A stretch of 64,000 nt of DNA, taken from an uncultured delta proteobacterium (GTDB lineage: Bacteria > Myxococcota_A > UBA9160 > SMWR01). The stretch is from assembly GCA_963832165.1 (NCBI GenBank), contig CAWHTE010000001.1, positions 416,001-480,000 on the forward strand, read 5' to 3'. A program made the translations under genes and the position numbers. Shown one piece after another: positions 21,131 through 62,611 of the stretch (within the stretch, counting starts at the first letter, position 1; each line of letters opens with the position of its first letter). Under the pieces are notes generated by a model. That model worked only from the letters and a program-made list of their open reading frames with translations. It searched no databases and had not been told where the DNA came from.

Positions 21131-22688
21131 ATGCGCCTCCACGATTTACTCGAGTACTGGGCGCGCACGACGCCCGCCGCCACTTTTGCGGAGTTTCGCG
21201 GCGCGCGGCTCTCCTACGCCGAAGCCGACGCGCGCGCGAACCGGATCGCGCACGCGCTCGCGGCTGCGGGGCTCGAGGTGGGCGAACGCGCGGCGATCCT
21301 CGCCAAGAACAGCCTCGACTACGCGCTGTTCTATTTCGCCGCCTCGAAGGCGGGCGTGGTGCCGGTTCCGCTCAACTACCGCCTCGCGCCGCCCGAGTGG
21401 TCGTTCATCCTCGGCGACGCGGGTGCGAAGGTGCTGATCGCCCAGAGCGAACTCGCCCAAGCGATCGATCCCGTGCGCGGTGAGCTATCGGCACTCAAGC
21501 GCGTGATCGCGATCGGCGCGGCGCCCGCGGGCTGGGAGGAATGGGAGACGTTCCTCGCCGGTCATCCCGAGACGCCGCTCGAACGCGCTGTCGCCGAAGA
21601 CGATGACGTCTACCAGATGTACACGAGCGGAACGACAGGCCGGCCGAAGGGAGCCGTGATCCAGCAGCGCGCGCTATGCGAGAACGCGGCTCAATTCGGA
21701 ACGACGGTCGCGTGCACTCCGGGCGAACGCTCGCTGATCGTCGCGCCCTACTACCACGCAGCCGCGATGATCATCACCACTGTCACCGTGCGCGCGGGTG
21801 GCACCCTCGTGATCCACGAGGACTTCGTCCCGTCCGACGCCGTGCGCGCGCTCTCGGAGGACCGGATCCACGTCGCGCTGCTCGTTCCCGCGATGATCCA
21901 GTTCTGTCTGACGGCGGTACCCGACGTCGCGCAGCGCAGCTACGACGACCTGCGCCTGATCCTCTACGGCGCGTCGCCGATCTCCGAGACCGTGCTGCGG
22001 CGCGCGATCGAGGTGTTCGGCTGCGGCTTCGTGCAGGCGTACGGGATGACCGAGTTCACCGCGATCGCGACCTGCCTCCTGCCCGCTGATCACGAGCGCG
22101 CGCTGCGCGACAAGCCGCGCCTGTTGCTCTCGTGCGGCCGACCTCTCATGGGGGCCCAGGTGCGCGTGGTCGACCGCGACGGTCGCCCGGTTCCGATCGA
22201 CACGATCGGCGAGATCCAGATCCGCGGGGCTTCGCTGATGCGCGGCTACTGGAATCGGCCCGAGGCGAACGCGGAGTCGCTGCGCGGCGGCTGGATGCAC
22301 ACGGGCGACGCGGGGTCGTTCGACGACGAGGGCTACCTCTACGTGCAGGACCGCGTGAAGGACATGATCGTATCGGGTGGCGAGAACGTGTATCCGCGCG
22401 AGATCGAAGACGTTCTGTTCCGCCACCCCGAGATCGCAGACGCGGCGGTGATCGGAGTGCCCGACGAGGAGTGGGGCGAGGTGGTGAAGGCGATCGTGGT
22501 ACCGGCCGCGGGCTGTGCGCCGACCGCCGCGCAGAGTCATCGACTTCTGCCGCGGGCAACTCGCCGGCTACAAACGCCCCCGCTCGGTCGATTTCGTTGC
22601 GGCGCTGCCGCGCAATCCGAGCGGCAAGGTTCTCAAGCGCGAGCTGCGAGCGCCTCATTGGAAGGGTCGCCAGCGCGGAGTGAACTAG
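21131..22688 (+). CDS. Long-chain fatty acid-CoA ligase with a +1 frameshift near 22535
   Basis: [17 protein letters not shown] and [16 protein letters not shown]; the conserved tail [37 protein letters not shown] continues in the next frame to TAG 22688; TATAAT at 21089. Confidence 0.88.
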
Positions 22689-22911
22689 GAAAGCCCGTCT
22701 CGAGCGGGCGACGAGAGAAACGCCTCGCCTGAGCGGCCTCGATTGGGGTACGCTCGTAGGGTCCGCGGCCGAATCGGAGAGCCGCTGCGCGCGCCCGCCT
22801 CGGGCCAACGGCTCCCGGACCGATGCGATCGCTTCCACGCGGTCGACTCCCCGGCTCGCCACGGCAGTCAACCGAACTACCGGAGCAACCGGTGAACAGG
22901 GAGGTGGCTGC

Positions 22912-27538: not shown

Positions 27539-28711
27539 ATGCCCGAGGCCTTCATCGTTGGAGCCGTCCGCACGGCCGGTGGCCGCAAGAACGGCAAGCT
27601 CAAGAACTGGCATCCGATCGACCTCGGGGCCTTCGTGCTCGACGAGCTCGTCGCGCGCACGGGCGCCGACCCGGCGCTGATCGAGGACGTGATCTTCGGC
27701 TGCGTCGACCAGGTGGGCGCGCAGTCGGCCAACATCGCGCGCAATGCGGTGCTCGCCTCGCGCCTCCCCGAGAGCGTGCCCGGCACGACCGTCGACCGGC
27801 AGTGCGGCTCCTCGCAGCAGGCGCTGCACTTCGCCGCGCAGGCCGTGATGAGCGGCGTCCACGACGTGGTGATCGCGGGCGGCGTCGAGGTGATGAGCCT
27901 GGTGCCGATCGGTGGCAACGCGATCGCGGGCCACAAGGCCGGCATGGGCAGCCCGTACGGCCTCGGCATGAAGAAGCGCTACCCGGGTGCGAAGTTCAAC
28001 CAGTTCGCGGGCGCCGAGATGATCGCGGAGCGCTGGGGATTCTCGCGCGAAGACCTCGATCGCTTCGGTCTCACCAGCCACGAGAAGGCGGCGCGCGCGA
28101 CGCGCGAGGGCCGGTTCGCGCGCGAGATCGTGCCCGTCGAGGTGACGCTCGAGGATGGCACGAGCGAGAAGTTCGCGGCCGACGAGGGCATTCGCGCCGA
28201 CGCGAGCCTGGCCGCCATGGCGGCCTTGAAGCCGCTCTCCGAGAAGGCGCTGCTCACGGCCGGAACGTCGAGCCAGATCACCGATGGCGCGGCCGCCGTG
28301 CTCGTCGCGAACGAAGCCGGTCTCGCGAAGCTCGGTGCGACTCCGCGTGCGCGCATCGCCGCAATGGCGCTCGCGGGCGACGACCCCGTGATCATGCTCA
28401 CGGCACCGATCCCGGCGACCGCAAAGCTGCTCCAGCGCGCGGGCATGTCGATCGACCAGATCGATCGCTACGAGGTGAACGAGGCGTTTGCGTCGGTGCC
28501 GCTGGCCTGGCTGCGCGACACGGGCGCGGATCCCGAGAAGCTGAACGTGAACGGCGGAGCCATCGCGCTCGGCCATCCGCTCGGTTGCACGGGCGCGAAG
28601 CTCATGACGACGCTCTTGCACGAGCTCGAGCGCATCGGCGGGCGCTATGGGCTCCAGACGATGTGCGAGGGCGGTGGGCTCGCCAACGCGACGCTGATCG
28701 AGCGCGTCTAG
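27539..28711 (+). CDS. Acetyl-CoA C-acyltransferase (thiolase)
   Basis: DRQCGSS, NEAF, GGAIALGHPLG and MCEGGG. Confidence 0.95.
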   Translation: MPEAFIVGAVRTAGGRKNGKLKNWHPIDLGAFVLDELVARTGADPALIEDVIFGCVDQVGAQSANIARNAVLASRLPESVPGTTVDRQCGSSQQALHFAAQAVMSGVHDVVIAGGVEVMSLVPIGGNAIAGHKAGMGSPYGLGMKKRYPGAKFNQFAGAEMIAERWGFSREDLDRFGLTSHEKAARATREGRFAREIVPVEVTLEDGTSEKFAADEGIRADASLAAMAALKPLSEKALLTAGTSSQITDGAAAVLVANEAGLAKLGATPRARIAAMALAGDDPVIMLTAPIPATAKLLQRAGMSIDQIDRYEVNEAFASVPLAWLRDTGADPEKLNVNGGAIALGHPLGCTGAKLMTTLLHELERIGGRYGLQTMCEGGGLANATLIERV

Positions 28712-30321
28712 AACCGGCCCTCGACCGACAGCCCCGCGGCCCAGAGGAACCCCTCGAACGCGACGGCGCCCGTGATCGGGCGGCCGTCCGGTCGGGCGGC
28801 CGCGAACGGATCGCGATTCGAGGTGAATCCGAGCGTCGCGAAGTTGCCGTCGGCGTCCTGATAGGTTGCGAGCCCGCCGAGGTTCTGGCTGCGCCCCTCG
28901 CCCACGCGTCGCGTCTCGTAGACCGCGGCCTGGAAGCCGGCCACGAGCCGCACGCCGCGCCGATTCCGACCCCCCCAGTGATAGGCGACGCCCGTCGAGG
29001 CCAGATGGCGGTTGGACGAGAAGCTGATCGCGTCGAGGTGGCCCTTCGAGACCACGCTGGGGTCGTACACGTAGCCGACGAGCAGATCGATCGACGAGGT
29101 CGCATTCCACTCGACGCCGGTGCGGACCGCGACGGTGTCGCGCATGTCGTAGTCGAGCACGAGCGAGCGGATCGCGTCACCGGGCGCGGCCCGCGCGGCG
29201 GGATTGATCGGCTGCAGCGCCGGAGCGAGTGCCGCCGGCAGCGCGACGAGCCCCGGCGACAGGCGCACCCGTGCGTCGGAGCCGAGACCGCTCGCCGCGC
29301 TCCACTGCGTCCATTGCAGATCCACCGACCAGGTGACCCGATCCACGACGTCCCATGCGAAGCCGCCCTGGAGGTGTCGCGGCATCTCGAGCACGAGCCG
29401 ATAGCGGGAGCGGCTGTACTCGGGCAGCACACCGAATCCGGCCGACGGGTCGATCCGCAGCGCGACGTCGCCCTCGAAATCGACCGGCGTCTCCTCGCGG
29501 TAGGCGAGGCCGAACGCGAGCCCGTCCAGCAGCCGATAGCGCAGCCCGAGCGTATAGCCCGCGGATCCGAAATCCGATTCGAACTTTCCGACGCCGAGCT
29601 CGGCCGAGTCGTCGCTGCGCAGAGAGAGGGCCCCGTCGTCGCCCCCGTCGATCGTCGCCGCAGCCGGCACCGCCTCTCCGGTGGCGAAGCTCGCGGCCTG
29701 TCCGACGAAGCCGTCGCCCAGGAACGCGTCGATGCGGAGCCTGTCGAACGCCACCCAATCGAGGGTCGCGCCGACCGAGAGCCGCTCGCTGAGCCGGACA
29801 GCCAGCGACGGCGCGAGCTCGAGCACGAACAGCGACTGGTTGCGGCTGTTGAAGCGATGGAAGCCGCGGTCGCTCCAATCGGCCGTGATCGCGAACGGAG
29901 CTCCGAAGCCGATCCCGAACACGACGCGGTCCGAGAACGGCAGCCGCTGCGCGCTGTCGAGAGCCCCGAGCGGAAAATAGGCACCGAGGCTGGGCGCCAC
30001 CGCGACGTCGGAGCCCCCGAGCGTGTGCTCGGTCTCGTGGTCGCCCTCTGCATCGGAGAAGATCAGCGGGCGCGTATCGATCACGCGCACATGGACGCCG
30101 ATCTCCGGCGCTCCCAGATCGCCTGCACCGGCGGGGTTGTAGTACCAGGACGACGGATCGCCGCCGCGCGCGGTGACGGCCCCACCTAGCAGCGCGGACC
30201 GCTCGCCCATCCCGATCGTCTGAATCCAGTCGGCGCGCGCGCCCGCGGCGAGCGCGACCAGCGCGGCGGTGACCCAGCACGCGGGGTGGAGCGATCCACG
30301 GACCCGACTCGCGAATCTCAT
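28708..30321 (-). CDS. FadL/TodX-family outer-membrane channel for hydrophobic compounds
   Basis: Signal peptide, hatch motif YYNPAG, GIGFGAPF, beta-strand pattern and C-terminal Phe. Confidence 0.85.
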   Translation of the reverse strand: MRFASRVRGSLHPACWVTAALVALAAGARADWIQTIGMGERSALLGGAVTARGGDPSSWYYNPAGAGDLGAPEIGVHVRVIDTRPLIFSDAEGDHETEHTLGGSDVAVAPSLGAYFPLGALDSAQRLPFSDRVVFGIGFGAPFAITADWSDRGFHRFNSRNQSLFVLELAPSLAVRLSERLSVGATLDWVAFDRLRIDAFLGDGFVGQAASFATGEAVPAAATIDGGDDGALSLRSDDSAELGVGKFESDFGSAGYTLGLRYRLLDGLAFGLAYREETPVDFEGDVALRIDPSAGFGVLPEYSRSRYRLVLEMPRHLQGGFAWDVVDRVTWSVDLQWTQWSAASGLGSDARVRLSPGLVALPAALAPALQPINPAARAAPGDAIRSLVLDYDMRDTVAVRTGVEWNATSSIDLLVGYVYDPSVVSKGHLDAISFSSNRHLASTGVAYHWGGRNRRGVRLVAGFQAAVYETRRVGEGRSQNLGGLATYQDADGNFATLGFTSNRDPFAAARPDGRPITGAVAFEGFLWAAGLSVEGRF

Positions 30322-30456
30322 TCCGGGCCTCGATATCACAGCCGGTCCCGAAATGCCCCATCGACGGCCGGACCGAGTTGCGTGCTCTGCGTCCTAAAGT
30401 GCGCCGTCGAAACGTCCGAACTAATAGCGCTATCATTTTTCGCGGGGAGGGGAACC

Positions 30457-31648
30457 GTGGTCCTCCAGGAACCCCAGGCCACCCACGACATCGTCCAGCG
30501 GCTGCGCGAGACCGAAGACCGCTTCAAAGTCATGGCGGATTCCTCGCCCGTGATGCTGTGGATGTCCGCGCTCGACTCGAACTGTTACTTCTTCAACAAG
30601 CCGTGGCTCGATTTCACCGGCCGCACCTTGGAGCAGGAGGTCGGATCCGGCTGGTGTGAGGGGGTCTACTTCGAGGACTTCCAGCACTGCATCGATACCT
30701 ATCTCGACCACTTCAACGCGCGCCAGCCGTTTCGGATGCGCTACCGCCTGCGCCGACACGACGGCGAGTATCGCTGGCTCCTCGACACGGGCGTCCCACG
30801 CTACTCACCCGACGGCACCTTCATGGGCTTCGTCGGTTCGTGCATCGACATCCAGGAGATGGTCGAGGCGAGCGAAGCGCTCGCGAACCTGAATGCGACG
30901 CTCGAGCGCCGAGTCGAGGAGCGCACCGCGCAGCTCGCCGACGCGAACCGCGAGCTCGAGAGCTTCGCCTACAGCGTCTCGCACGATCTGCGCGCTCCGC
31001 TGCGCCAGATTGGCGGTTACGCGGAGCTGATCCGAAAGGAGCTCCCGGTCGAGCTCGTGAAGGGAACGCTCGAGCGCTATCTGGGCTTCCTCCAGGAGGG
31101 TGCCGATCGCGCGCAGGCGCTCGTGCGCGACGTGCTCGAGTTCTCGCGGGTGTCTGGGGCCGGGCTCCAGCCTGCAGCGCGTGGCGCTCGCGCCGCTCGT
31201 GGCCGAGCTGCAGCGCATGCTGCCCCCCGAGAGCCGGAAGGCGTCGATCCGGTGGGAGGTCGCGGAGCTGCCCGAGGTGACCGGCGACGCGACGCTCTTG
31301 CGCCTCGTCTTCCAGAACCTGCTCGAGAATGCGCTCAACTTCACCGAGAAGCGACCCGAGACCGTGATACGCGTGTGCCACTCCGAGAAGGACGGCGAGC
31401 ACGTCTTCGGGATATCCGACAACGGGATCGGCTTCGATCCGACGCAGTCGCATCGCCTGTTCAAGCTCTTCCAGCGCCTGCACGCGCAGGAGGAATGCGG
31501 TGGCAGCGGGATCGGACTGGCCAACGTCGCGCGGATCGTGAAGCGCCACGGCGGCCGGGTGTGGGCGGAGGGCAAGACGGGGGAGGGCGCGACGTTCTAC
31601 TTCGCGCTTCCCACCGTATCCGCAGGCGAGTCGGAATCGGCGGATTGA
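30457..31648 (+). CDS. Cytoplasmic PAS sensor histidine kinase with a +1 frameshift at about 31170
   Basis: PAS (FNKPWLDFTG...RRHDGEYRW), H-box YSVSHDLRAPL, then in the next frame NLLENA, DNGIGF and GSGIGL. Confidence 0.88.
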
Positions 31649-31660
31649 AATCGGGACGGA

Positions 31661-33196
31661 TTGGCGATGCTTCCGCGAGACTCGTGGTTGGATCTGGCGC
31701 GCAAGCTCGACTGGACGTACCGCTACGTTCCGGAGTCGGAGCTCTTTCCCGACGCTCCGAGCGGTGTGACGCGGGTGCCGCCGGAAGCGTGGAAGGAATG
31801 GGACGAGCCGTTCAAGACCAGCTACCGCGAGTACGTCGCCGCCCAGAGTGAGAAGGAGCGCGCGGTGCGCGCCGTGCGCGATGCGGTCGGCCGCCCCGAG
31901 CACGCAGCGCGTCTCCCGCTTCCGTGGCTGAACGTCAACAAATTCCACGGCGCCACGCTGCCGCTCGCCGAGTTCGCGGCCACGATCGGCAACCTGCGCG
32001 CGGGCCGCTTCGGGCGCGACAGCGCGTGGCGCACGATGGCGCTGTTCGGCGCGCTGGACGAGTTCCGGCACACCCAGATCCCGCTGCTCGTGTTCCACGA
32101 TCTCGTGAAATGGGATCCGCAGTTCGACTGGGTGCACCGCTTCTATCACACCAACAACTGGGTGGCGATCGCGGCGCGGCACTTGATCGACGAGCTGCTG
32201 CTCGCCGCGAATCCCGTCGAGTTCGCGATCGGCACGAACTTCGTGTTCGAGACCGGCTTCACGAACCTCCAGTTCGTCGCGCTCTCGGCGCTCGCCCGCG
32301 ACGCAGGCGACCCGATGTTCGAGACGATGGTGAAGAGCATCCAGACCGACGAGGCGCGCCACGCCCAGATCGGCCGCGCCGTGCTCGAGATCCTCGTCAA
32401 GAACGATCGCGAGTACGCACAGCACCTCGTCGACAAGTGGTTCTGGCGCAGCTGGCACCTGTTCAGCGTGCTGACCGGATTCAGCATGGACTACCTGACG
32501 CCGCTTTCGGCGCGGCGCGCGTCGTTCAAGGAGTTCATGGAGGAGTGGGTCCTCGACCAGTTCGTCGAGGTGCTCGACGCCTACGGGCTGTCCCGGCCCT
32601 GGTACTGGGAAACCTTCGTGCGTTCGCTCGACCACTACCATCACATGGTGTACGCGAGCGCCTACACCTATCGAGCGACGGTCTGGTTCGACCTGGTGGT
32701 GCCCGGTCCGGAAGAGCGCGCTTGGCTCGCCGAGAAGTACCCCGCCTCGTGGCCCTCGCTCGCTCCGGTCTGGGACCGCGTCGACGCGGGCTGGCGCGAG
32801 AGCGACCCGGATCTCGACTTCGCCGCGCACGGCTCGGCGATCGTCACGTTCTGCGACACCTGCCAGCTCGTGCTCTGCGAGGGAACGCCCACGCGCAACA
32901 GCGCCGAGACGCTCGTGCACGGCGAGCGCAAGTACATCTTCTGCTCGGAGCCGTGCCGCTGGATCTTCGAGCAGGAGCCCGAGCGCTACGCGGGCCACCG
33001 CGACGTGGTCAAGCGCGTGCTCGCGGGCGAGGCGCCCGGAAATCTCGCCGCGATCTTGACCCAGTACTTCGGGCTCACTCACGAGACCTGGGGGCGCGAC
33101 GCCTACCGCGGTCGATACGACTGGCTCGAGCGCCCGGCGAAGCCGACGCCGACGCTTCCCACTGCCGCAGAGGCACCCGACGAGCGCCGGCCATGA
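31661..33196 (+). CDS. tmoA: Soluble di-iron monooxygenase hydroxylase alpha subunit (TmoA/TouA/XamoA-like) with YHS domain
   Basis: N-terminus MAMLPRDSWLDLARKLDW, WDEPFK, LDEFRH, FETGFTN, TDEARH and FCSEPCRWIF. Confidence 0.92.
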   Translation: MAMLPRDSWLDLARKLDWTYRYVPESELFPDAPSGVTRVPPEAWKEWDEPFKTSYREYVAAQSEKERAVRAVRDAVGRPEHAARLPLPWLNVNKFHGATLPLAEFAATIGNLRAGRFGRDSAWRTMALFGALDEFRHTQIPLLVFHDLVKWDPQFDWVHRFYHTNNWVAIAARHLIDELLLAANPVEFAIGTNFVFETGFTNLQFVALSALARDAGDPMFETMVKSIQTDEARHAQIGRAVLEILVKNDREYAQHLVDKWFWRSWHLFSVLTGFSMDYLTPLSARRASFKEFMEEWVLDQFVEVLDAYGLSRPWYWETFVRSLDHYHHMVYASAYTYRATVWFDLVVPGPEERAWLAEKYPASWPSLAPVWDRVDAGWRESDPDLDFAAHGSAIVTFCDTCQLVLCEGTPTRNSAETLVHGERKYIFCSEPCRWIFEQEPERYAGHRDVVKRVLAGEAPGNLAAILTQYFGLTHETWGRDAYRGRYDWLERPAKPTPTLPTAAEAPDERRP

Positions 33197-33456
33197 GCGT
33201 GCTCATCCCGCTGTACGGATTCCTCGAAGGCGACACGATCGGGTTGATCGTGCTCGCGCACGACGACGATCCGATCGCGCGCGTGATCGCGAAGCTCCAG
33301 CACTCCGCGCGCTGGCGCGTGGCGAAGCTCGAGAACGCGCGCGCGTACCACGCCGGCCGAGAGCTCGACTCCGCGCAGACCGTGGCAGAGGCCGGGCTCA
33401 CGCCGCTCGAGCGGATCGACGTGCGCAGGGCGGGGGACGCGGGCGATGCTCCGTGA
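33193..33456 (+). CDS. tmoB: Monooxygenase gamma subunit (TmoB-like)
   Basis: IPLYGFLEGD...TVAEAGLTPLERIDV; ATGA overlap with the alpha subunit. Confidence 0.85.
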   Translation: MSVLIPLYGFLEGDTIGLIVLAHDDDPIARVIAKLQHSARWRVAKLENARAYHAGRELDSAQTVAEAGLTPLERIDVRRAGDAGDAP

Positions 33457-33760
33457 CGCGGCAGCCCTCGACGAGCTCCGGATCGGCGAGATGAAGGGCG
33501 TCGTGCTCGATGGCCGGCCGGTTCTGCTCGTCCGGCTCGACGATGGCGTCCGTGCGTATGCCGACCGCTGCTCGCACCAGGGCGTTCGCCTCTCCGAGGG
33601 GCGGCTCGACGGGACGCACCTCACCTGCCATGCGCACGAGTGGCTCTACGACGCAGCGACGGGCCGCGGCATCAACCCGGCCTCCTGTGCGCTCACGGCG
33701 TATCCGGCCGAGGTACGCGCGGGCCGCATCCTCGTCGACCCCGAGGCCGGCGCGCGATGA
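33446..33760 (+). CDS. tmoC: Rieske ferredoxin (TmoC-like)
   Basis: DRCSHQ...TCHAHEWLYDAATGRGINP. Confidence 0.9.
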   Translation: MLRDAAALDELRIGEMKGVVLDGRPVLLVRLDDGVRAYADRCSHQGVRLSEGRLDGTHLTCHAHEWLYDAATGRGINPASCALTAYPAEVRAGRILVDPEAGAR

Positions 33761-34050
33761 GTCGCGGACGCGCCGGACCCGATCTGCTCGCGGGCACGCT
33801 CGGCCTCGCCGTGATCGACGCGCTGCGCGAGGACAATCCGGCGCTCGAGGTGCGCGATTGGGGGGCCTTTCTGCGCGCCTCCGCGCCCGCGCGCTGCGTG
33901 CTGCGGCGCGCCACGGTCGAGCGGCGGCTCGGCGAGCCGTTCCAGCTCCCGGGCGACCTCGAGCGGATCATGCCCTCGTGTCAGGGGCGGATCTCGTTCG
34001 CAGAGGATGAAGTGGTGTGGGCGGCCGAGTCCCGGGTGCCGGTGAAATGA
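33757..34050 (+). CDS. tmoD: Effector/coupling protein (MmoB/DmpM, TmoD-like)
   Basis: AGPDL...AVIDALREDNP...LERIMPSCQGRI. Confidence 0.85.
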   Translation: MSRGRAGPDLLAGTLGLAVIDALREDNPALEVRDWGAFLRASAPARCVLRRATVERRLGEPFQLPGDLERIMPSCQGRISFAEDEVVWAAESRVPVK

Positions 34051-34959
34051 GCAAGCGCCGCACCTACTGGCATCTCGAGGGCAGCGAGCGCGTGCCGACC
34101 GAGTACGAGATCGCCACGTCGCGCATCCTCTACTACGCGGGTCGCGGTTTCGAGATCGATCTGCCGCTCTCGAGCTGGTACGAGCGCTACCAGCAGGGCT
34201 CCGCGTTCACGTGCGCCAACCCGGAGGGTTGGGAGGCGTTCCGCGATCCGCGCGCTACCACCTATGCGCGCTATGCGATGATCCAGGCCACGAAGGAGGC
34301 GCACGTCGACGCGCTCTTCGATTCGATCGAGCGCAGCGACACCGATCGGAGTCAAAGCGCCGCGTGGCTCGCGGTGCTCGAGCAGGTGCTGCCGCCCGCG
34401 CGATATCTCTTCCACGGCCTCCAGATGGCCAGCCTGCTACGTGGCACAGATGGCGCCGGCGGGGCGGATCGCGATCTGCGCGATGTTCCAGGCCGCCGAC
34501 GAGATGCGGCGCCTGCAGCGCTTCGCCTACCGCATGGCCCTCGTGCGCCGCGCAGTGCCGCGCTTCGGCGACGGCGCGCGGCACCTCTTCGAGGAGCTTC
34601 CCGCGTGGCAGGGCGCGCGCGAAGCACTCGAGCGATTGCTCGCCACCTACGATTGGGGCGAGGCCTTCGTCGCGTTGAACGGTGTTCTGAAGCCGCGCAT
34701 CGACGCGTTCTTCGGCGGGGCGTTCGCGCGCGCAGCTGCCGCCGCGGGCGAGCCGCTGTGGGTCGAGATCCTCGGCTCGCTCGACGAGGACTCCGCGTGG
34801 CATCGCAACTGGAGCAGCGCGCTCCTGGCGTCGTCCGATGCGCGCGCGTCGGTAGACGAGTGGAGACTCAAGTGGGGCGCGCTGGCAGAGCCTGCGATCA
34901 AGGGGCTCGAATCGCTGCTGACGCCGGCCTCGGATGCGCTCGCGGCGGACGCGCGATGA
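34047..34959 (+). CDS. tmoE: Monooxygenase beta subunit (TmoE-like) with a +1 frameshift at about 34433
   Basis: RTYWHL...PTEYEI, WEAFRDP and RYLFHGLQM, then in the next frame YVAQMAP...FQAADEMR, YDWGEAF and LDEDSAWHRNWS. Confidence 0.88.
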
Positions 34960-35336
34960 GCGCGCTGCGGATCCTGCTCGTCGAAGACAGCGTGGCGGAT
35001 GCCGTGCTCACCCAGCGCGCGCTCGAGGTCGGCGGAGCTGGGCAATTCGCGCTCAGCGTCGCGGCTTCGCTCGGGGAGGGCATCGACCGCCTCGCGCAGG
35101 GCTTCGATGCGATCCTGCTCGATCTCACACTGCCCGACAGTGTCGGGCCCGAAACGGTGACGCGGATGCGGGTCGCGGCGCGCGAGCTGCCGATCGTCGT
35201 GCTGTCGGGCGTCGAAGATGCGGAGACGGCCGACCTCTGTCTGCGCGCGGGCGCGGTCGCCTACCGACCGAAGGGGCGCATCGACGCCGTCGAGCTGCGG
35301 CGGATCGTGGAGGGTGCGATCGGGCCCGGGCGATAG
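34956..35336 (+). CDS. Single-domain response regulator (receiver only)
   Basis: ILLVEDS, LLDLTLPDS, VVLSG and YRPKG; ATGA overlap with the beta subunit. Confidence 0.9.
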   Translation: MSALRILLVEDSVADAVLTQRALEVGGAGQFALSVAASLGEGIDRLAQGFDAILLDLTLPDSVGPETVTRMRVAARELPIVVLSGVEDAETADLCLRAGAVAYRPKGRIDAVELRRIVEGAIGPGR

Positions 35337-35354
35337 TAGATCCAGACCGAGAAT

Positions 35355-37796
35355 GTGGCGGAAGCGCCGCAAACCTCTTGGGGGAAGATCGTGGAATTCT
35401 TCAGCGAGTTCATGCCGCACGGGCATTGTTATGCGTGGACGCCCTCGATCTTGTGGGCGTCGGTGCTCTCCGACGTGACCATCGCCATCTCCTATTTCTC
35501 GATCCCGATCGCGCTGCTCTTCTTCATTCGCAGACGCGACGACCTCCCGTTCAGCTGGATCTTCGCGCTGTTCGGCGTCTTCATCCTCGCGTGCGGGACC
35601 GGTCACGTCCTCGAGGTCTGGAACACATGGCACGGCGCCTATGGGGGGCAGGCGATCGTGAAGGTGATCACGGCCGTCGCGTCGATCGGGACCGCGGTGG
35701 CGCTGTGGCCGCTCTTGCCGCGTGCGCTCGCGTTGCCGAGCCCGCGGCAGCTCAGTGAGGCGAACGAGTCGCTGCGCGACGAGATCACGATCCGCGAGCA
35801 GGCCGAGGGTGCGCTGCAAACGCAGGCGCGCGAGCTCGAGGTGGCGCGCGATGCCGCGCAGTCGGCGAGTCGGGCGAAGAGCCAGTTCCTCGCGAACATG
35901 AGTCATGAGATCCGGACGCCGCTCAACGCCGTGATCGGCCTGTCGGAGATCCTGCTCGACACCGATCTGACCGAGGGCCAGCGCGATCATCTGCGAACCG
36001 TGATCGATTCGGGCGACGTGCTGCTCACGGTCGTGAACGACATCCTCGACTACTCCAGGATCGAAGCCGGCAAGATCGAGCTCGAGAGCGTGGTATTCGA
36101 CCTCGACGACGTGGTCGGCGACACGCTGCGCTCGCTCGCGGTCCGCGCCGAGCACAAGGGCATCGAGCTCATGTGTCAGCTCGATGCCGACGTGCCGAGG
36201 GCGCTGCGCGGCGATCCGGGCCGGTTGCGGCAGGTGATCTCGAACCTGGTCTCGAACGCGATCACGTTCACCGAGCGCGGCGAGGTCGAGGTGCACGTGG
36301 CGCGCGAGGCCGAGGGCGTGCTTCGCTTCAGCGTGCGCGATACCGGAATGGGCATCGAACCCGGCGACATCGACCGGTTGTTCGAGTCGTTCGAGCAGGC
36401 CGACAAGTCGTCCTCGCGGCGCTTCGGCGGCACGGGCCTCGGCCTCTCGATCAGCCGCGGTCTCGTCGCGTTGCTGGGAGGGAAGATCAGCGCGGCGAGC
36501 ACGCCGGGCGTGGGCAGCACGTTCACGTTCACGGCGAAGTTCGAAGAGCTGGAGGCCGCGCCGCTCGAACCCGCGCGCCAGGCGATTCCGCTCGCGGGCA
36601 CGCGCGTGCTGATCGTCGACGACAATCCCACCAACCGGGTGATCCTGTTCACGCTCGCTCGGCGCTGGGGGATGGAGCCGGTTCCGTGTTCGTCCGCGGC
36701 CGAGGCTCTGTCGGTGCTCCGGCAGGTCGGGGAGGGCGGCGACCGCGTGCCGCTGCTGCTGCTCGATCTGCACATGCCCGGGACCGATGGCTTCGCGCTC
36801 GCGGCGCGCATCCGCGCCGACGCCGCGCTCGACGATCTCTCGATCGTGCTGCTCACCTCGGCCGGCATGGCCCAGGACCTGCGCCGCTGCGAGGAGCTCC
36901 GGATCGCCGCACGGCTCATGAAGCCCGTGAAGGAGTACGAGCTCTACGACGTGGTGGCGCGCGTGCTCGGCCACCGTTCGGCGAGTGCTCACGCGAACGC
37001 GGCGCGCCGCGCCTCGATGGCGACGGGCGCTCGCGCCTCGGGATCGATCGCGCTCGGCTCGCAGCGGATCCTGCTGGTCGAGGACAGCGTTCCGAACCAG
37101 AAGGTCGCGCTCGCGATCCTGCAGAGCCACGGGCACACCGTGGTGATCGCGAACGACGGCCAGGAGGCGGTCGGATTGTTCACGGCCCAGGAATTCGACG
37201 CGATCCTCATGGACATCCAGATGCCGGGCATGGACGGCTTCGCCTGCACGGCCGCGATTCGCTCCGCGGAGTTCGGCACCAACCGGCACATTCCGATCAT
37301 CGCGATGACGGCGCACGCGCTGGCCGGCGACCGCGAGAAGTGCCTGGCGGCCGGCATGGACGACTACGTTTCGAAGCCGATCCGCCGCGAGGATCTGCTC
37401 GGCGCACTCTCCGCGGCAATCCAGCACACGCGCGGCGTGGTCGACTTCTCGGGGGTCCTGTCCCAGCTCGGCGACGACCGCGAGGCGCTGCGCGACGTCG
37501 TCTCCGCCTACGTCACCGAGACGCGCGAGAACCTGGAGCGCCTGCCCGCGACGATCGCGTCGGGTACGTGGAAAGAGGTGCGCCGGTTGGCCCACACCAC
37601 CAAGAGCGCGATGCGCGTGTTCGGCGCGCACGAAGCGCAGCAGCTCGCCGAGAGCCTCGAGCAGCTGGCTCAGATGGAAGACCGCAGCACTGCCGCCGAT
37701 CTGTACCTGCGCATGAAGAGCGCGGTCGAGGGCGTGGTCGAGGTGTTGGCGCGCTTCGCGAACACGGGGGTGATGGACACGCGCGAGGCGCGTTAG
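35355..37796 (+). CDS. Hybrid sensor kinase: ETR1-type ethylene-binding domain, HisKA, HATPase, REC, REC, HPt
   Basis: [13 protein letters not shown]...[12 protein letters not shown] three-TM domain; [18 protein letters not shown]; two receivers (LDLHMP, MDIQMP); HPt LAHTTKS. Confidence 0.92.
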
Positions 37797-38260
37797 CTCG
37801 CACCCTCTTTCCGGCGCGCGCGGCGCCGCCGGCGCTTCGATTGCAGCATCCGGTGGTCGACGTCGATCAGGAACGGCCCCGCGAGTGCGGCGCGGCCGAG
37901 CAGCATGCGGTGGATCATCTTCGCGCGGTCGACCAGGCCGACCTCGATCGTCTTCTCGACCCCGCCGAGTCGCAGCGTCGTCTCCACGAACAAGCGCTGG
38001 GCGAGCTCGCCGTTGCTCGAGCGCACGCGGGACCGGCGCTTGACGTGGGCGTGCACGTGAACGTGGAGATCGCGTTTCTCGCGGTGCAGCACGACGTCGA
38101 ACCGCACGATGCCGCGCGGCTGCTCGCGGATGTTCTCGACGTGGAGCGCGCTGCTGCGCGCACCGGTGTCCACCTTGGCGAGGAGCCGCCGCACCCCCCA
38201 GTCGGGGAGGTCGACATACTCCGTCCATCCGATCAGTACCGGGGTGCGCCGGGCCTTCAC
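37793..38260 (-). CDS. RimK-associated retropepsin-like putative protease
   Basis: [26 protein letters not shown] and MLLGR. Confidence 0.85.
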
Positions 38261-38331: not shown

Positions 38332-39507
38332 ATGCACGTCGACTACACCCCGGAGCAGAAGGCGCTGCGCGCCGAGCTGCGCGCCTACTTCGGCAAGCTC
38401 GTGACACCCGAGCTGCGCTCGAAGCTCCACGGTCTCGAGACGAGCCCGCTTCACAAGCAGGTAATCCGCCAGATGGGCCGAGACGGCTGGCTCGGCGTCG
38501 GCTGGCCCGTCGAGTACGGCGGCCAGGGACGCACCGCGATCGAGCAGATGATCTGGTTCGAGGAGGCGCGCCGTGCGGGGGCGCCGATCCCGTTCGTCAC
38601 GCTGAACACGGTCGGCCCGACCCTGATGGCCACGGGTAGCGAGGCGCAGAAGCAGAAGTTCCTGCGCGCGATCCTCGCGGGCGAGATCCACTTCGCGATC
38701 GGCTACTCCGAGCCCGATGCGGGCACCGACCTCGCTTCGCTGAAGACCAGCGCCGTGCGCGATGGCGACCACTACGTGGTGAACGGCACCAAGATCTTCA
38801 CGAGCGGCGCCGACGCCGCGGACTACGTCTGGCTCGCGGTGCGCACCGATCCCACGGTGCCCAAGCACAAGGGCATCTCGATCCTGATCGTCGACACGAA
38901 GCTGCCCGGGTTCTCCCACGCGCCGATCTACACGCTCGGAGGCGGCCACACCAACATGACCTACTACGAGAACGTGCGCGTTCCGGTGGACATGGTGGTC
39001 GGACAGGAGAATCAGGGCTGGGGCCTGATCACGATGCAGCTCAACCACGAGCGGATCGGTCTCGCGGCGTTCAGCAGCTATGCGCAGCGGCTCTTCGACG
39101 AGACGGTCGAATGGGCGCGCAAGACCGAAGCCGAGGACGGCCGGCCCGTCGGCGAGAAGCCCTGGGTGCAGTCGTGCATCGGCGAGGCACACGCGCGGCT
39201 CGAGGCGATGAAGGTGTTCAACTGGCGGATGGCCTGGGAGCTCGAGCGCGGCAAGCTGAACCCCGCAATGGCCTCGGCGGCGAAGGTGCACAGCACCGAG
39301 GCCGTGATCGAGGTCTATCGGCTGCTGCTCGAGGTCGTCGGAATGCCGGGTGCGATGCGTCCCGGCTCGGCAGGCGAGGTGCTTCGCGGCGAGCTCGAGA
39401 CCGAGTGGCGTCACTGCCAGATCAACACCTTCGGCGGCGGCGTCAACGAGGTCCAGCGCGAGCTGATCGGCATGTTCGGGCTCAGACTGCCGCGCGCGGC
39501 GCGCTAG
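38332..39507 (+). CDS. Acyl-CoA dehydrogenase (ChsE2/FadE29-like)
   Basis: FAIGYSEPDAGTDLASL, QLNHER and INTFGGGVNEVQR. Confidence 0.88.
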   Translation: MHVDYTPEQKALRAELRAYFGKLVTPELRSKLHGLETSPLHKQVIRQMGRDGWLGVGWPVEYGGQGRTAIEQMIWFEEARRAGAPIPFVTLNTVGPTLMATGSEAQKQKFLRAILAGEIHFAIGYSEPDAGTDLASLKTSAVRDGDHYVVNGTKIFTSGADAADYVWLAVRTDPTVPKHKGISILIVDTKLPGFSHAPIYTLGGGHTNMTYYENVRVPVDMVVGQENQGWGLITMQLNHERIGLAAFSSYAQRLFDETVEWARKTEAEDGRPVGEKPWVQSCIGEAHARLEAMKVFNWRMAWELERGKLNPAMASAAKVHSTEAVIEVYRLLLEVVGMPGAMRPGSAGEVLRGELETEWRHCQINTFGGGVNEVQRELIGMFGLRLPRAAR

Positions 39508-39512
39508 ATCGT

Positions 39513-40472
39513 ATGACTCCCGAAGCGCTGCGCGCGGGTCTCGACGCGTGGGTCGGCCGCGAAGGCGAGCCCGCCGCCGCGCGAGACGCGGTGAACCCCG
39601 CGATGATCCGCCACTGGTGCGACGCCGTGGGCGACGACAATCCGGTTTATACCGATCGGGATTTCGCCGCGAAATCCGTGCACGGCGCCATCGTGGCCCC
39701 GCCCACGATGCTCCAGGCCTGGACGATGCGCGGCGTGCGCCCGCCGAAGCCGGCATCGACGCAGAAGGATCCGGTGTCCGAGGTGATGCATCTGCTCGAC
39801 ACGGCCGGCTACACGTCGGTGGTCGCGACCAACTGCCGCCAGGAATACCGCCGCTACCTGCGCGAGGGCGATCAGCTGAGCGTCGGCACGCGTGTGTCCA
39901 AGGTCTCCGACGAGAAGAAGACCGCGCTCGGCGTGGGGCGCTTCGTCGACGAAGAGATGATCTACCGCGATGCCGCGGGCGAGGAAGTCGCCCGGATGAC
40001 CTTCCGCATCCTGAAGTTCAAGCCGCCCGCGGCGAGCCAGGCGGCTCCCGCACCGGCAGCGGATCCGAAGCCGCGCCGTCGACCGCGCCCCGCGCGCTCG
40101 CAGGACAACGCCTTTTTCTGGGAGGGCGTCGCGGCCGGTGAGCTCCGCATCCAGCGTTGCACCGCTTGCCGTGCGCTGCGCCATCCGCCGGGCCCGATGT
40201 GTTCGCGCTGTCAGTCGCTCGACTGGGACTGGAGCGTCGCGAGCGGGCGCGGACACGTGTTCAGCTTCGTGGTGGCCCACCACCCGCCCGTGCCTCCGTT
40301 CACCTATCCGAACGCGATCGCGCTGATCGAGCTCGACGAGGGCACGCGGCTGGTGTCGAACCTCGTCGGGATCGATCCCGCGGACGTCGAGATCGGCACG
40401 CGCGTGCGCGTCGAGTTCACGCGCGTCGACGACGAGCTGGTACTCCCTCTGTTCCGGCCCGATTCCAACTGA
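39513..40472 (+). CDS. MaoC-like dehydratase fused to DUF35 Zn-ribbon/OB-fold (ChsH2-like)
   Basis: VNPAMIRHWCDAVGDDNP, APPTMLQAWTM, FFWEG and CTAC...CSRC. Confidence 0.9.
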   Translation: MTPEALRAGLDAWVGREGEPAAARDAVNPAMIRHWCDAVGDDNPVYTDRDFAAKSVHGAIVAPPTMLQAWTMRGVRPPKPASTQKDPVSEVMHLLDTAGYTSVVATNCRQEYRRYLREGDQLSVGTRVSKVSDEKKTALGVGRFVDEEMIYRDAAGEEVARMTFRILKFKPPAASQAAPAPAADPKPRRRPRPARSQDNAFFWEGVAAGELRIQRCTACRALRHPPGPMCSRCQSLDWDWSVASGRGHVFSFVVAHHPPVPPFTYPNAIALIELDEGTRLVSNLVGIDPADVEIGTRVRVEFTRVDDELVLPLFRPDSN

Positions 40473-40493
40473 AATTCCAATCGGAAGGAAGCC

Positions 40494-41612
40494 ATGGATT
40501 TCTCCCCCTCCGAAGAGCTCGTCGCGCTGCGCGATCTCGCGCGCCAGATCTTCGCCGATCGCGTGACCCACGAGCGCCTGCTCGCGCTCGAGAAGAGCGG
40601 CGAGTGGTTCGACAACGAGCTCTGGAGCGAGCTCGCGCGCGCGGGCCTCACCGCGCTCGCGATTCCCGAGGCGAACGGCGGCGGCGGTCTCGGCGCAGAG
40701 GAGCTCTGTGCGGTCTTCGAAGAGCTGGGCCGCCACACCGCACCGGTGCCGCTGTTCGCGACGGCGGTGCTGGGCGCGCTGCCGATCGCAGAGTTCGGCA
40801 CCGCGGAGCAGCGCGAGCGCTGGCTGCGCCCCGTGGCCGAGAGCGGTGCGGTGCTCTCCGCGGCGCTGCTCGAGTACGCGAGCAGCGAGCCGGGTGCGCC
40901 GCGCACGCGGGCCGTGCAGAGCGGTGGAGTGTGGCGGCTCGACGGCGAGAAGCACTGCGTGCCCGCCGCGGATCGCGCGAGCGCGATCCTGATTCCCGCG
41001 CGCACGCCCGAGGGCGTGACCGTCTTCGTGGTCGATCCGAACGCGGCCGGCGTGTCGCTCGAGGCGCAGGTGGCGACCCATCGCGAGCCGCAGTGGCGCG
41101 TGCAGCTCTCGAGCGCGCCCGCCGAGGAGGTGCTCGGTGCGCCGGGCCAGGGCGAGGCGATCGTCGCGTGGATCGCCGATCGCGCTGCGCTCGCGCTCGC
41201 GGCGATCCAGATCGGTGTCGCCGAGGAGGCCATGCGCCGGACCGCGCTCTACATCACCGAGCGCAAGCAGTTCGGCAAGGCGATCGCGACGTTCCAGGGG
41301 GTCACGCTGCGCGCGGCCGACGCGTGGATCGACGTCGAGGCGATGCGCAGCGTCGTGATGCAGGCGGCCTGGCGCGTGGCCGCGGGTCGGCCCGCCACCG
41401 CTGCGATCGCAACCGCGAAGTGGTGGGCCGCCGTGGCGGGCTCGCGCGTGGTGCACACGGCGCAGCATCTGCACGGCGGAATCGGGTCGGACCTCGAATA
41501 CCCGATCCACCGCTTCTTCCTCTGGTCGAAGCAGAACGAGCTCCTGTTCGGCGGCGCACGCCAGCAGGCGGCTCGACTCGGCGCCCATCTGCTGGGCGCG
41601 AACGCGGCCTAG
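40494..41612 (+). CDS. Acyl-CoA dehydrogenase partner subunit (ChsE1/FadE28-like)
   Basis: RKQFGKAIATFQ and HLHGGIG; lacks the usual SEP FAD motif, as partner subunits do. Confidence 0.85.
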   Translation: MDFSPSEELVALRDLARQIFADRVTHERLLALEKSGEWFDNELWSELARAGLTALAIPEANGGGGLGAEELCAVFEELGRHTAPVPLFATAVLGALPIAEFGTAEQRERWLRPVAESGAVLSAALLEYASSEPGAPRTRAVQSGGVWRLDGEKHCVPAADRASAILIPARTPEGVTVFVVDPNAAGVSLEAQVATHREPQWRVQLSSAPAEEVLGAPGQGEAIVAWIADRAALALAAIQIGVAEEAMRRTALYITERKQFGKAIATFQGVTLRAADAWIDVEAMRSVVMQAAWRVAAGRPATAAIATAKWWAAVAGSRVVHTAQHLHGGIGSDLEYPIHRFFLWSKQNELLFGGARQQAARLGAHLLGANAA

Positions 41613-41614
41613 GC

Positions 41615-42037
41615 GTGAGCGCCGTACACCGCCAGGCGACGCTGCGCTACGACGAGGTCCAGCCCGGCGATGCGCTACCCGCGCTCGAGGTTCCGATCAC
41701 GGCCACGGTGATCGTGTCGGGCGCGATCGCGTCGCGCGACTACCAGGACGTGCACCACGACGCCGAGCTCGCGCGCCAGCGCGGCTCGAAGGACATCTTC
41801 ATGAACATCCTGACCACGAACGGCTTCGTGGGCCGCTACGTCACGGACTGGGCCGGACCCGAAGCGCTGCTGCGCAGCGTGGACATCCGACTCGGCGCTC
41901 CGAACTATCCCGGCGACACGATGGTGTTTTCCGGCACGGTCGCCGCGAAGCGCGACGGCGTCGTGACGATCGCGGTGCGCGGTGCGAATCAGCTCGGCGA
42001 CCACGTGACGGGTCAGGTCGAGATCGCGCTGCCATGA
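41615..42037 (+). CDS. MaoC-family hydratase (ChsH1-like)
   Basis: SRDYQDVHHD, KDIFMNILT and YVTDWAGP. Confidence 0.9.
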   Translation: MSAVHRQATLRYDEVQPGDALPALEVPITATVIVSGAIASRDYQDVHHDAELARQRGSKDIFMNILTTNGFVGRYVTDWAGPEALLRSVDIRLGAPNYPGDTMVFSGTVAAKRDGVVTIAVRGANQLGDHVTGQVEIALP

Positions 42038-43218
42038 AATCGCTCGCGAGCCAGTTGAAGGACAAGGCGGCGATCGCCGGAATCGGTGCCACCGAGTTTT
42101 CGAAGGACTCGGGGCGCAGCGAGCTGCGCCTTGCGGTCGAGGCGGTCCTGGCCGCGCTCTCGGATGCGGGTCTCACACCCGCGGACGTCGACGGGATGGC
42201 GACGTTCACGATGGACAACAACCCCGAGATCGAGGTGAACCGCTACCTCGGCGGCGGCGACCTGCGCTTCTTCTCGCGCACGCACTACGGCGGCGGCGCC
42301 GCGTGCGCGCCGATCCTGCACGCGGCGATGGCCGTGGCCACGGGCGTGTGCGACGTGGTGGTGTGCTACCGCGCGATGAACGAGCGCTCGCAGCAGCGCT
42401 TCGGCATCGGCGTGCAGGACCGCCCGCCGGCTCCGCGGCCCGAGGAGATCCACTTCGGCTGGCATTCGCCCTACGGCCTGCTCACGCCCGCGTCCTGGGT
42501 CGCGATGAACGCGCAGCGCTACATGCACGAGTTCGGCGCCACCACCGAGGACTTCGGCCGCGTGTCGGTCGCCGATCGCAAGCACGCGGCCACGAATCCG
42601 GCCGCGTGGTTCTACGGCAAGCCGATCACGCTCGAAGATCATCAGAGCTCGCGCTGGATCGTCGAGCCGCTGCGCCTGCTCGATTGCTGCCAGGAGAGCG
42701 ACGGCGCGGTCGCGGTGGTGGTGACGAGCCTCGAGCGCGCGCGCGACCTGCGCCAGCCGCCGGTGCGGATCGCCGCGGCGGCACAGGGCGCCACCACCGA
42801 TCAGCAGATGATGACGCGCTACTACTCCGAGCAGATCACGGGGCTGCCCGAGATGGGACTCGTCGCCGGGCAGCTCTACGCCACCGCGGGGATCGGCCCC
42901 GCCGACGTGCAGACGGCGGTGCTCTACGATCACTTCACGCCCTTCGTGCTCCCGCAGCTCGAAGAGTTCGGGTTCTGCGGGCGAGGCGAGGCGAAGGACT
43001 TCGTGCGCGCGGGCGAGATCGAGCTCGGCGGGCGCCTGCCGATCAACACGCACGGCGGCCAGCTCGGCGAGGCCTACATCCACGGCATGAACGGGATCGC
43101 CGAGGGCGTGCGCCAGGTGCGCGGCACCTCGGTGAATCCGGTGCCGAACGTCGAGCACGTGGTCGTGACTGCGGGCACGGGCGTGCCGACGAGCGGGTTG
43201 ATCCTGGGCCGCGTCTAG
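42034..43218 (+). CDS. ltp2: Thiolase-like aldolase / lipid-transfer protein (Ltp2-like)
   Basis: GIGATEFSKDSGRSE, LLDCCQESDG, LYDHF and GGQLGEAYIHG. Confidence 0.88.
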   Translation: MKSLASQLKDKAAIAGIGATEFSKDSGRSELRLAVEAVLAALSDAGLTPADVDGMATFTMDNNPEIEVNRYLGGGDLRFFSRTHYGGGAACAPILHAAMAVATGVCDVVVCYRAMNERSQQRFGIGVQDRPPAPRPEEIHFGWHSPYGLLTPASWVAMNAQRYMHEFGATTEDFGRVSVADRKHAATNPAAWFYGKPITLEDHQSSRWIVEPLRLLDCCQESDGAVAVVVTSLERARDLRQPPVRIAAAAQGATTDQQMMTRYYSEQITGLPEMGLVAGQLYATAGIGPADVQTAVLYDHFTPFVLPQLEEFGFCGRGEAKDFVRAGEIELGGRLPINTHGGQLGEAYIHGMNGIAEGVRQVRGTSVNPVPNVEHVVVTAGTGVPTSGLILGRV

Positions 43219-60235: not shown

Positions 60236-61429
60236 TCACTTCGACTTCGGCAGGCCGAGCACGCGCTCGCCGAGGATGTTGCGCTGGATCTCGTTCGTGC
60301 CGGCCGCGATCGTGTGGCCGTAGGAATCGAGATACTCGATCGGCCAGCGCGCCTCGTCGGGCGCCGCTGGGTCGAGCTTGTACAGCGTCGAGTGGGCGCC
60401 CGCGATGTCCATGCCGAGGCGCGCGTTGTCCTGCGAGTACTCGGATCCGGTCACCTTCATCTGGAGCGGCAGCCGCATCGGGTGATCGCAGAGCGCCGGC
60501 ACGCGCGACCGGCGCATGTTCTGCATCATGCCCTCGTGCACGATCGCGCGCTGCACGAGCGCGTCGCGCGTGAACGGGTCGTCGCTCGCTCGTACGCCGT
60601 TGCGGTAGCTCGCGCGTGCGAGCGCGATCAGACGCTCGATGGCGCTCGCGCGATCGCCTCCGCCTCCGCCGGCGCCCTCGGCGGCGCCGCGCTCGTAGGT
60701 GAGAGTGGTCATCGCGACGGTCCAACCCTTGCCGACGGCGTCGAGGCGCAGCGAGTCGGGGATCTCGACGTTCTCGAAGAGCACCTCGTTGAAGCCGCTG
60801 TCGCCCGTCATCTTGATCAACGGCTTCACGGTCACGCCGGGATGCCCCTCGATCGGGCACAGGAAGTAGGTGAGCCCGTCGTACTTGTGATCCTTGCTCG
60901 TGCGCGTGATCAGGATCATCCACTGCGCGATGTGGCCGAGGCTCGTCCACACCTTGTGCCCGTTCACGATCCAGGCGTCGCCCTTGCGCACGGCGCTCGT
61001 CTGCTGATTGGCGAGGTCGGAGCCCGCGCCGGGCTCGGAGAAGCCCTGACACCAGATCTCGTCGCACGCGAGCGCGGGTTTGATGAACCGGCGCTTCTGT
61101 TCCTCGGTGCCGTGCACGAGGATCGTCGGGATCGCCATCGAGAGCGCCACGACATTCAACATGTAGGGCGTGCCGGCCTGGCTCATCTCGCGGTTCGCAA
61201 TGCGCTGGAAGCCCTGGTGGCCGCCGCCTCCGTACTCTTTCGCGATGTCGGCGCCCACGAGCCCGGCTTCGTAGCAGCGGTGCTGCCATTCCTGCAGGTA
61301 GTCGCGCAGCGGTCCGCCGCTGACCTCGATCGGCAGCACGGGCAGGCGCTCGGGCGGCGGCGGCGGCCTGTTCTCGGCGAGCCAGCGGCGTGCGTACTCC
61401 TGGAATTCCCTCTGCTCGGCGTCGCTCAT
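60236..61429 (-). CDS. Acyl-CoA dehydrogenase (catalytic subunit type)
   Basis: WCQGFSEPGAGSDLA, FNEVLF, TLTYER and TIAAGTNEIQRNILGERVLGLP. Confidence 0.9.
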   Translation of the reverse strand: MSDAEQREFQEYARRWLAENRPPPPPERLPVLPIEVSGGPLRDYLQEWQHRCYEAGLVGADIAKEYGGGGHQGFQRIANREMSQAGTPYMLNVVALSMAIPTILVHGTEEQKRRFIKPALACDEIWCQGFSEPGAGSDLANQQTSAVRKGDAWIVNGHKVWTSLGHIAQWMILITRTSKDHKYDGLTYFLCPIEGHPGVTVKPLIKMTGDSGFNEVLFENVEIPDSLRLDAVGKGWTVAMTTLTYERGAAEGAGGGGGDRASAIERLIALARASYRNGVRASDDPFTRDALVQRAIVHEGMMQNMRRSRVPALCDHPMRLPLQMKVTGSEYSQDNARLGMDIAGAHSTLYKLDPAAPDEARWPIEYLDSYGHTIAAGTNEIQRNILGERVLGLPKSK

Positions 61430-62583: not shown

Positions 62584-62611
62584 GGGGGCCTCCAGAGGTG
62601 GAGGCCGCACG

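Follow-up and report, generated by a model that had tools for sequence, protein, structure and literature searches.

A reductase-less di-iron monooxygenase cluster and its constant PAS domain: a candidate enzyme-coupled sensor of soil bacteria

The 64,000-nucleotide stretch of DNA considered here (the window) belongs to an uncultured delta proteobacterium (GTDB lineage Bacteria; Myxococcota_A; UBA9160; SMWR01) and covers positions 416,001 to 480,000 of contig CAWHTE010000001.1 in assembly GCA_963832165.1; within it I will follow a five-gene cluster for a soluble di-iron monooxygenase (SDIMO), tmoABCDE, together with the sensor kinases that flank it. The run begins on the plus strand with a PAS_3-HisKA-HATPase sensor kinase (30457-31648, assigned by Pfam, its PAS domain at about 30508-30867 and its frame split near 31173), and continues with tmoA for the di-iron hydroxylase alpha subunit (31661/31667-33196; Phenol_Hydrox and YHS by Pfam), tmoB for the gamma subunit (33193-33456; PF06234), tmoC for a Rieske ferredoxin (33446-33760; PF00355), tmoD for the effector or coupling protein (33757-34050; PF02406) and tmoE for the hydroxylase beta subunit (34047-34959; PF02332 in two frames, split near 34429). 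A single-domain response regulator, or receiver (34956-35336; PF00072), and a hybrid kinase with the Pfam architecture ETR1_N-HisKA-HATPase-REC-REC-Hpt (35355-37796) close the run on the same strand, and a FadL/TodX family outer-membrane channel (28708-30339, minus strand; PF03349) lies divergent from the PAS kinase. The original prediction, made by a model from the letters of this stretch and a list of its open reading frames, had described the same run with its junctions, and both stand: 12 bp lead to the TTG start of tmoA, four junctions are ATGA overlaps, one is an 11 bp overlap and 18 bp lead to the first GTG of the hybrid kinase. For the latter gene, the start at 35391 given by the gene caller, which makes the gap 54 bp instead of 18 bp, appears more likely than the first GTG. 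Gene spacing suggests that the run is co-transcribed, and a promoter and terminator scan gave no signal above shuffled sequence. The single receiver is likely the phospho-acceptor of the PAS kinase, and receivers recur beside the cluster in other loci.

The cluster was compared with 160 related loci, namely the top 80 of at least 589 matches in genomes and the top 80 of at least 577 in metagenomes, each with up to 10 kb of flank, and with a control set of 8 canonical group-1 loci. Whole genomes were drawn upon as well: the window genome (G000; 5.5 Mb in 11 contigs, 89% complete), two genomes of the same genus, G004 (= G061), whose locus at the cluster is L016, and G006 (77% complete), a sample of 44 genomes from the host family, and 50 cluster-bearing genomes, themselves incomplete, taken from the 80 genome matches for whole-genome profile searches.

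TmoA of the window is 40-44% identical to plasmid-borne group-1 enzymes, where membership in group 1 of the SDIMOs (TMO) was set at 35% identity or more to TMO references as in PMC11825192, and it retains the iron ligands E102, E132, H135, E195, E229 and H232 of the carboxylate di-iron site plus T199, N200 and Q226. The six ligands and the equivalents of T201, N202 and Q228 (ToMO numbering, read off the alignment) are invariant in 156 of 156 clade sequences, as are the Rieske Cys/His ligands of TmoC across an alignment of their own. The nearest well-known systems, T4MO (TmoABCDEF) and ToMO (TouABCDEF), have these residues in common with the clade, along with the fold (template modelling score 0.85 to their hydroxylases), about 41% identity and the group-1 gene order of alpha, gamma, ferredoxin, effector (coupling protein) and beta; the clade is unlike them in that the reductase is absent from all 160 loci, a PAS kinase usually stands in that place, no degradation pathway is linked and the sequences form a branch of their own. 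A FastTree tree built from 79 clade sequences together with 8 canonical group-1 references and 2 outgroups sets clade and references on separate long branches, with support of 0.78 and 0.99. The pocket differs too: all 156 sequences have Pro at the ToMO Q141 position (Pro139 in the window), 149 have Thr at L192 and 146 have Leu at I100. XamoABCDEF and the isobutene and isoprene monooxygenases belong to the same group and, like the clade, are polar at L192 (Thr in XamoA, Asn in ELW1), but they are about 40% identical to the clade, possess a reductase and carry Asp, not Pro, at 141, and Xamo adjoins a gene for an epoxide-coenzyme M (CoM) lyase. The cluster does not fit group 4, the alkene/ethene monooxygenases (EtnABCD), whose four genes run beta, coupling protein, alpha, reductase: its alpha subunit is 25% identical to EtnC and its gene order is different. 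TmoA relatives make up 1,426 protein clusters at E<=1e-50, and the window protein shares 65-69% identity with the 116, from uncultured relatives, that are listed after the four closest. Judged from its genes, then, the clade is a set of reductase-less, uncharacterised group-1 di-iron monooxygenases.

Several features of the cluster can be recorded alongside. The C-terminal YHS region of TmoA has four cysteines (396, 399, 426 and 430) that are invariant in 156 of 156 clade sequences; the phenol hydroxylase reference has them too, several canonical TMOs do not. I take them to be a possible zinc site. Apparent fusions, called by our own gene caller and perhaps in part start-calling artefacts, join TmoC to TmoD in 7 loci (L029, L035, L039, L108, L109, L111, L136), TmoC, D and E in 6 loci (L062, L069, L162, L163, L169, L173) and TmoA to TmoB in 4 loci; in L025 and L038 the order is rearranged to tmoD-E-PAS kinase-receiver-tmoA-B-C, with the kinase amid the enzyme genes. 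The cluster counts leave out tmoA matches of relatives that were weak (E>1e-5, over about 100 residues), and also those of G047, a genome of the same order with four distant di-iron monooxygenase alpha subunits of 24-30% identity that fall outside this clade.

The sixth gene of a group-1 operon, encoding the NADH reductase, is what the clade lacks: a profile built from six canonical reductases found none in the 160 loci, 105 of which have at least 1.5 kb after tmoE, and was positive in 7 of the 8 canonical loci. The original prediction had remarked that no reductase, ring-cleavage or epoxide-CoM gene was linked to the window cluster and had suggested that the enzyme may end or modify a signal and not serve growth, and on these points it has worn well, with the reductase missing from the cluster and from all 160 loci, no ring-cleavage or epoxide-CoM genes among the recurring neighbours, no match in the 89% complete window genome to tblastn queries with DmpE, DmpF, DmpH and XecA, and comparative data that fit the signalling idea. 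A conserved catabolic neighbour was absent among the 70 largest gene families (the leading unlabelled ones scanned by Pfam), and the genes that otherwise recur nearby encode receivers, hybrid kinases and housekeeping functions that differ by lineage. Over whole genomes, an MmoC-like reductase at E<=1e-25 was full-length in only 9, partial in 21 and not found in 20 of the 50 incomplete cluster genomes. Four of the 160 loci (L062, L069, L162, L169) have epoxide hydrolases close to the cluster, and the window has an epoxide-hydrolase-like gene of its own (61426-62610, minus strand; 37% identical to a Thermomicrobium protein) about 24 kb from the cluster.

What stays with the enzyme is a PAS domain. 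Of the 73 loci that have at least 2.5 kb of flank on both sides, 72 carry one particular PAS_3 subtype no further than 2.5 kb from the cluster (47 of 48 once loci are dereplicated at 90% TmoA identity), and neither this PAS nor a kinase is found in any of the 8 canonical controls; the original prediction had listed the PAS kinase without singling out its constancy. A locus reached independently through the TmoB Pfam model (G405) has the subtype as well, that model having matched in 2 of 401 genomes of the phylum, a number that gives no frequency estimate, since the model is insensitive for this clade. Within the host family the subtype (E<=1e-20) is restricted to 2 of 44 genomes, the two with the cluster, and among the 50 cluster genomes it is present at E<=1e-35 in 49, with exactly one match in 38. 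The domain is as well conserved as the hydroxylase, being 96% identical between the window and G004 where TmoA is 86% identical, and having a mean identity over 69 genome loci of 0.65, equal to that of TmoA (0.65; TmoB-E 0.48-0.55); TmoA and PAS distances correlate in a Mantel comparison (rho 0.60; 0.35 without Acidobacteriota). The module behind the domain is not constant at all: among 30 partners picked for diversity from 114, the output is HisKA in 16, HisKA_2 in 10, HisKA_3 in 2, a sigma-54 activator in 1 and unassigned in 1. In most non-acidobacterial loci the PAS gene follows tmoE, usually in the slot that the reductase takes in canonical operons, and where the kinase gene lies downstream, its start overlaps the stop codon before it in 42 of 67 cases (own gene caller); in the lineage of the window the PAS kinase is directly upstream of tmoA. 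The cultured Labilithrix luteola DSM 27648 (L092) has tmoA-E followed by a PAS-PAS kinase, and in L085 (13522-15372) a sigma-54 activator fused to this PAS comes directly after tmoE, in addition to a PAS kinase upstream. As for structure, the PAS model is a confident PAS fold (predicted local distance difference test score 96.7) whose fold search returned generic PAS/LOV matches at 13-22% identity, an ESM Atlas search returned generic PAS clusters, and a complex prediction for G004 TmoA, TmoE, TmoC and PAS (53-row alignments, TmoD left out) reached a median of 0.26 against a mark of 0.32, which counts neither for nor against a contact.

A reductase-less cluster that nearly always travels with one PAS domain suggests an enzyme kept for sensing and not for growth. 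I therefore propose, with a probability of roughly 0.5, that TmoABCDE and one PAS_3 subtype make up the conserved unit and serve together as the input of an enzyme-coupled sensor, because the PAS stays with the enzyme while the output module swaps, and because the operon comes without an electron source or a pathway; enzyme and kinase are genetically inseparable and the enzyme lacks normal metabolic coupling, as one would look for in a sensory enzyme-kinase pair. A housekeeping reductase or ferredoxin would feed electrons to the hydroxylase via the Rieske protein, turnover would occur at a low level and only when both O2 and a small hydrophobic substrate (an alkene or arene) are present, and the PAS domain would respond to it in one of two ways, by binding the oxidised product or through contact with a component that changes its redox or conformational state, and would then switch whichever kinase or activator carries it. 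In the window genome the signal would pass to the single receiver and probably enter the phosphorelay of the neighbouring hybrid kinase of ethylene-receptor type, and that kinase would represent a second input. A working analogy is the regulatory hydrogenase HoxBC with its kinase HoxJ, which binds the hydrogenase through its PAS domain. There a metalloenzyme acts as a sensor and talks to a histidine kinase, with HoxA completing the system (PMC6978683); it is unlike the clade in having an unrelated enzyme, a fixed kinase and transcription factor, and an enzyme-kinase contact reported in the accessible part of that source (PMC6978683), whereas a contact of this kind in the clade is putative.

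A number of observations pull the other way. The 160 loci were ranked by likeness to the window TmoA and include kin, so their counts are not independent, and the correlation of TmoA and PAS distances is due in part to shared descent. One locus with full flank, L081, lacks the PAS, with a cognate-like PAS on another contig of that genome. In Acidobacteriota the kinase is mostly divergent upstream, of the NodV/FixL type and sometimes near LuxR regulators, which looks like a plain regulator. There are also 14 unlinked PAS paralogues, mostly of Acidobacteriota, with the same conserved Cys/Trp/His residues, so the subtype may sense something generic on its own; a signature unique to the cluster-linked copies was sought and none was found. 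A PaaE/KshB-like protein on contig C8, the best reductase in the window genome, could serve in trans, and the invariant Pro at the Q141 position may alter or impair catalysis.

A more conventional account, which I consider rather unlikely, is that the clade is a catabolic or detoxifying monooxygenase regulated in the manner of TmoST/TodST, with the PAS binding the substrate, the kinase inducing the operon and a reductase acting in trans. Like the clade, TmoS/TmoT and TodS/TodT have a PAS-containing kinase associated with a toluene oxygenase, TodS senses toluene via its PAS and TmoS/TmoT controls the T4MO pathway (PMC4861429, accessible text), and the mostly divergent acidobacterial kinases, the FNR-type reductase matches of one kind or another in 30 of the 50 genomes and the epoxide hydrolases of the four loci mentioned above would all be at home here. 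Those systems differ, however, in their multi-domain kinase, dedicated DNA-binding regulator and complete enzyme, and no such regulator is conserved in the clade, as local profiles placed DNA-binding output domains no more than 3 kb away in only 11 of 52 genome loci, and the window has neither these nor a linked DNA-binding response regulator. The lack of a conserved catabolic neighbour also argues against it, as do a kinase usually inside the operon and translationally coupled, a kinase body swapped among unrelated classes behind a constant PAS, and perhaps a PDB sequence search in which that PAS found 3mr0 only and no TodS PAS1 entry. It is quite unlikely, to my mind, that the di-iron protein instead senses O2 or redox state and has no organic substrate, with the PAS reading the oxidation state of the hydroxylase or ferredoxin; the missing reductase, the invariant Pro next to the iron site, three conserved PAS cysteines and varied outputs that include EAL/GGDEF proteins speak for it, but the equivalents of T201, N202 and Q228 are retained together with the effector and the ferredoxin, as one would expect of catalytic turnover, and the PAS cysteines are also present in the unlinked paralogues. 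Scarcely credible is the idea that the window copy is decaying and no longer functional, which would draw on one extra base each in the PAS kinase and tmoE, the frame splits given above, absent from the original prediction. Both genes are intact in G004 (the PAS kinase orthologue there has 396 aa) and tmoE also in L096, and three near-identical public contigs cover the two split sites and are each one base shorter; the public contigs are short, and none spans tmoE to the ETR1 kinase. An unrelated acyl-CoA ligase gene nearby, fadD (21131-22732), has a frameshift close to its 3' end, probably another assembly error and the third of the window, and the GC content at third codon positions is like that of the flanking genes (0.88-0.94). 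The intact orthologues, the shorter contigs and the similarly broken fadD make it likely that the extra bases are assembly errors.

The ethylene-receptor-type kinase needs to be weighed by itself, as the original prediction had built upon it a dedicated module in which ethylene or a similar alkene is imported by FadL, sensed by the ETR1 kinase and oxidised by the monooxygenase, a scheme that now seems very unlikely. The domain itself is convincing: it scores 127 bits against a Pfam cut-off of 27, is the sole ETR1_N in the window genome and keeps, at constant offset, all seven ETR1 binding positions (D25, Y32, I35, P36, I62, C65 and H69), and all seven are kept in L096 and G006 as well. D25, C65 and H69 are named as binding residues of ethylene receptors, C65 is required for the copper cofactor, and a bacterial relative, AzoEtr1 of Azospirillum, binds ethylene (PMC11819568, accessible text). 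Like AzoEtr1 and SynEtr1, the window kinase combines ETR1_N, with D25, C65, H69 and the four other positions, with an adjacent receiver; unlike them, it is a predicted receptor, a hybrid with two receivers and Hpt, and beside a monooxygenase in this lineage only. A PDB sequence search with the domain gave chance matches only. The kinase adjoins the cluster in all three loci of the lineage that are long enough (the window, L016 and L096), and the Thr at L192 is common to XamoA, a propene-oxidising enzyme. Against this, an ETR1-type domain near the cluster occurs in 2 of the 160 loci, L016 and L096, both closest kin at 86% TmoA identity, and in none of the 59 loci with at least 5 kb of flank on both sides. 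By Pfam, ETR1_N is over the cut-off in 15 of the 50 cluster-bearing genomes, where it is at the cluster in G004 and elsewhere in the other 14, and within the host family it is found in 3 of 44 genomes, all of this genus. The G004 copy directly after tmoE keeps 4 of the 7 positions, having lost Y32, I35 and the copper cysteine C65. As an observation on that locus, the kinase is duplicated there (L015:6148-9809), the full copy with the degenerate copper site being accompanied by an in-frame fragment whose first 40 residues are joined to the Hpt end, and the internal deletion in this second copy may be real or an assembly artefact. G006 has an orthologue (66% identical over 680 aa) amid other kinases and an OmpR-like regulator, so labelled from its sequence, and tmoA was not found in this 77% complete genome; the intact hybrid kinase of G006 sits within its kinase cluster on C118 (L215), and a second, degenerate ETR1-like kinase is on another contig, C512 (L216). 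FadL fares no better: it survives as a 5' remnant in G004 and went undetected in the other 159 of 160 loci, and a Marinobacter TodX-like query had no match in the window genome, hence the window FadL is not a close TodX relative. Because the linkage is rare, the G006 orthologue goes without tmoA, the G004 copper site is lost and FadL is unconserved, comparison across genomes places the ETR1 kinase and the porin as local, lineage-restricted neighbours and not core parts. The intact kinase beside the cluster in this lineage hints weakly at a small-alkene ligand such as ethylene, which I regard as unlikely, and taken together the XamoA-like Thr, the occasional epoxide hydrolases and the ETR1 kinase are a weak hint at alkenes.

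The flanking genes give FadL another possible context. A RimB-like retropepsin aspartic peptidase gene (37793-38260, minus strand), also present in G004, is convergent with the ETR1 kinase, and beyond it, at 38332-43218, is a run, syntenic in G004, of genes for two acyl-CoA dehydrogenases, two proteins labelled MaoC-like from their sequence and a lipid-transfer thiolase (above the cut-off of NF005892). It resembles the igr steroid side-chain cluster. The window FadL may serve the lipid context of these genes.

Returning to the proposed enzyme-coupled sensor, the literature search turned up neither an ETR1-monooxygenase operon nor a PAS-coupled monooxygenase without a reductase, within a library that covered few subscription papers and no bioRxiv supplements. 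The accessible part of PMC8784404 has nothing on either, PMC13603553, so far as its text was accessible, kept complete tmoABCDEF operons only, and the di-iron monooxygenases in the accessible text of PMC11825192 are first-step catabolic enzymes with a reductase. The last of these sources does list uncharacterised group-1 TMO subgroups A and B from Acidobacteria, Planctomycetota and others, whose taxa overlap those of the clade loci, and its supplement names sequences of Labilithrix luteola DSM 27648, Polyangiaceae and Acidobacteria; yet TMO operons are six-gene there with a reductase and with guessed aromatic substrates, and the word 'kinase' is absent from the accessible supplement, whereas the clade loci are reductase-less (PMC11825192). 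The reductase-less PAS module thus appears to be a real, widespread and apparently undescribed variant of the group-1 monooxygenases, and its ETR1 link apparently lineage-specific.

A large clade of monooxygenases appears to be wired into signal transduction instead of catabolism. With a little less assurance than an even bet, I suggest that it may represent the first sensory SDIMO, a portable detector of hydrocarbon plus O2 with many outputs, distributed among soil Myxococcota, Acidobacteriota, Planctomycetota and Proteobacteria and, in this lineage, joined to an intact ethylene-receptor kinase. If true, this would provide an uncharacterised TMO subgroup with a function, tmoA counts in soil metagenomes need not signify toluene degradation, and soil bacteria would possess a new way to perceive inert volatile hydrocarbons.

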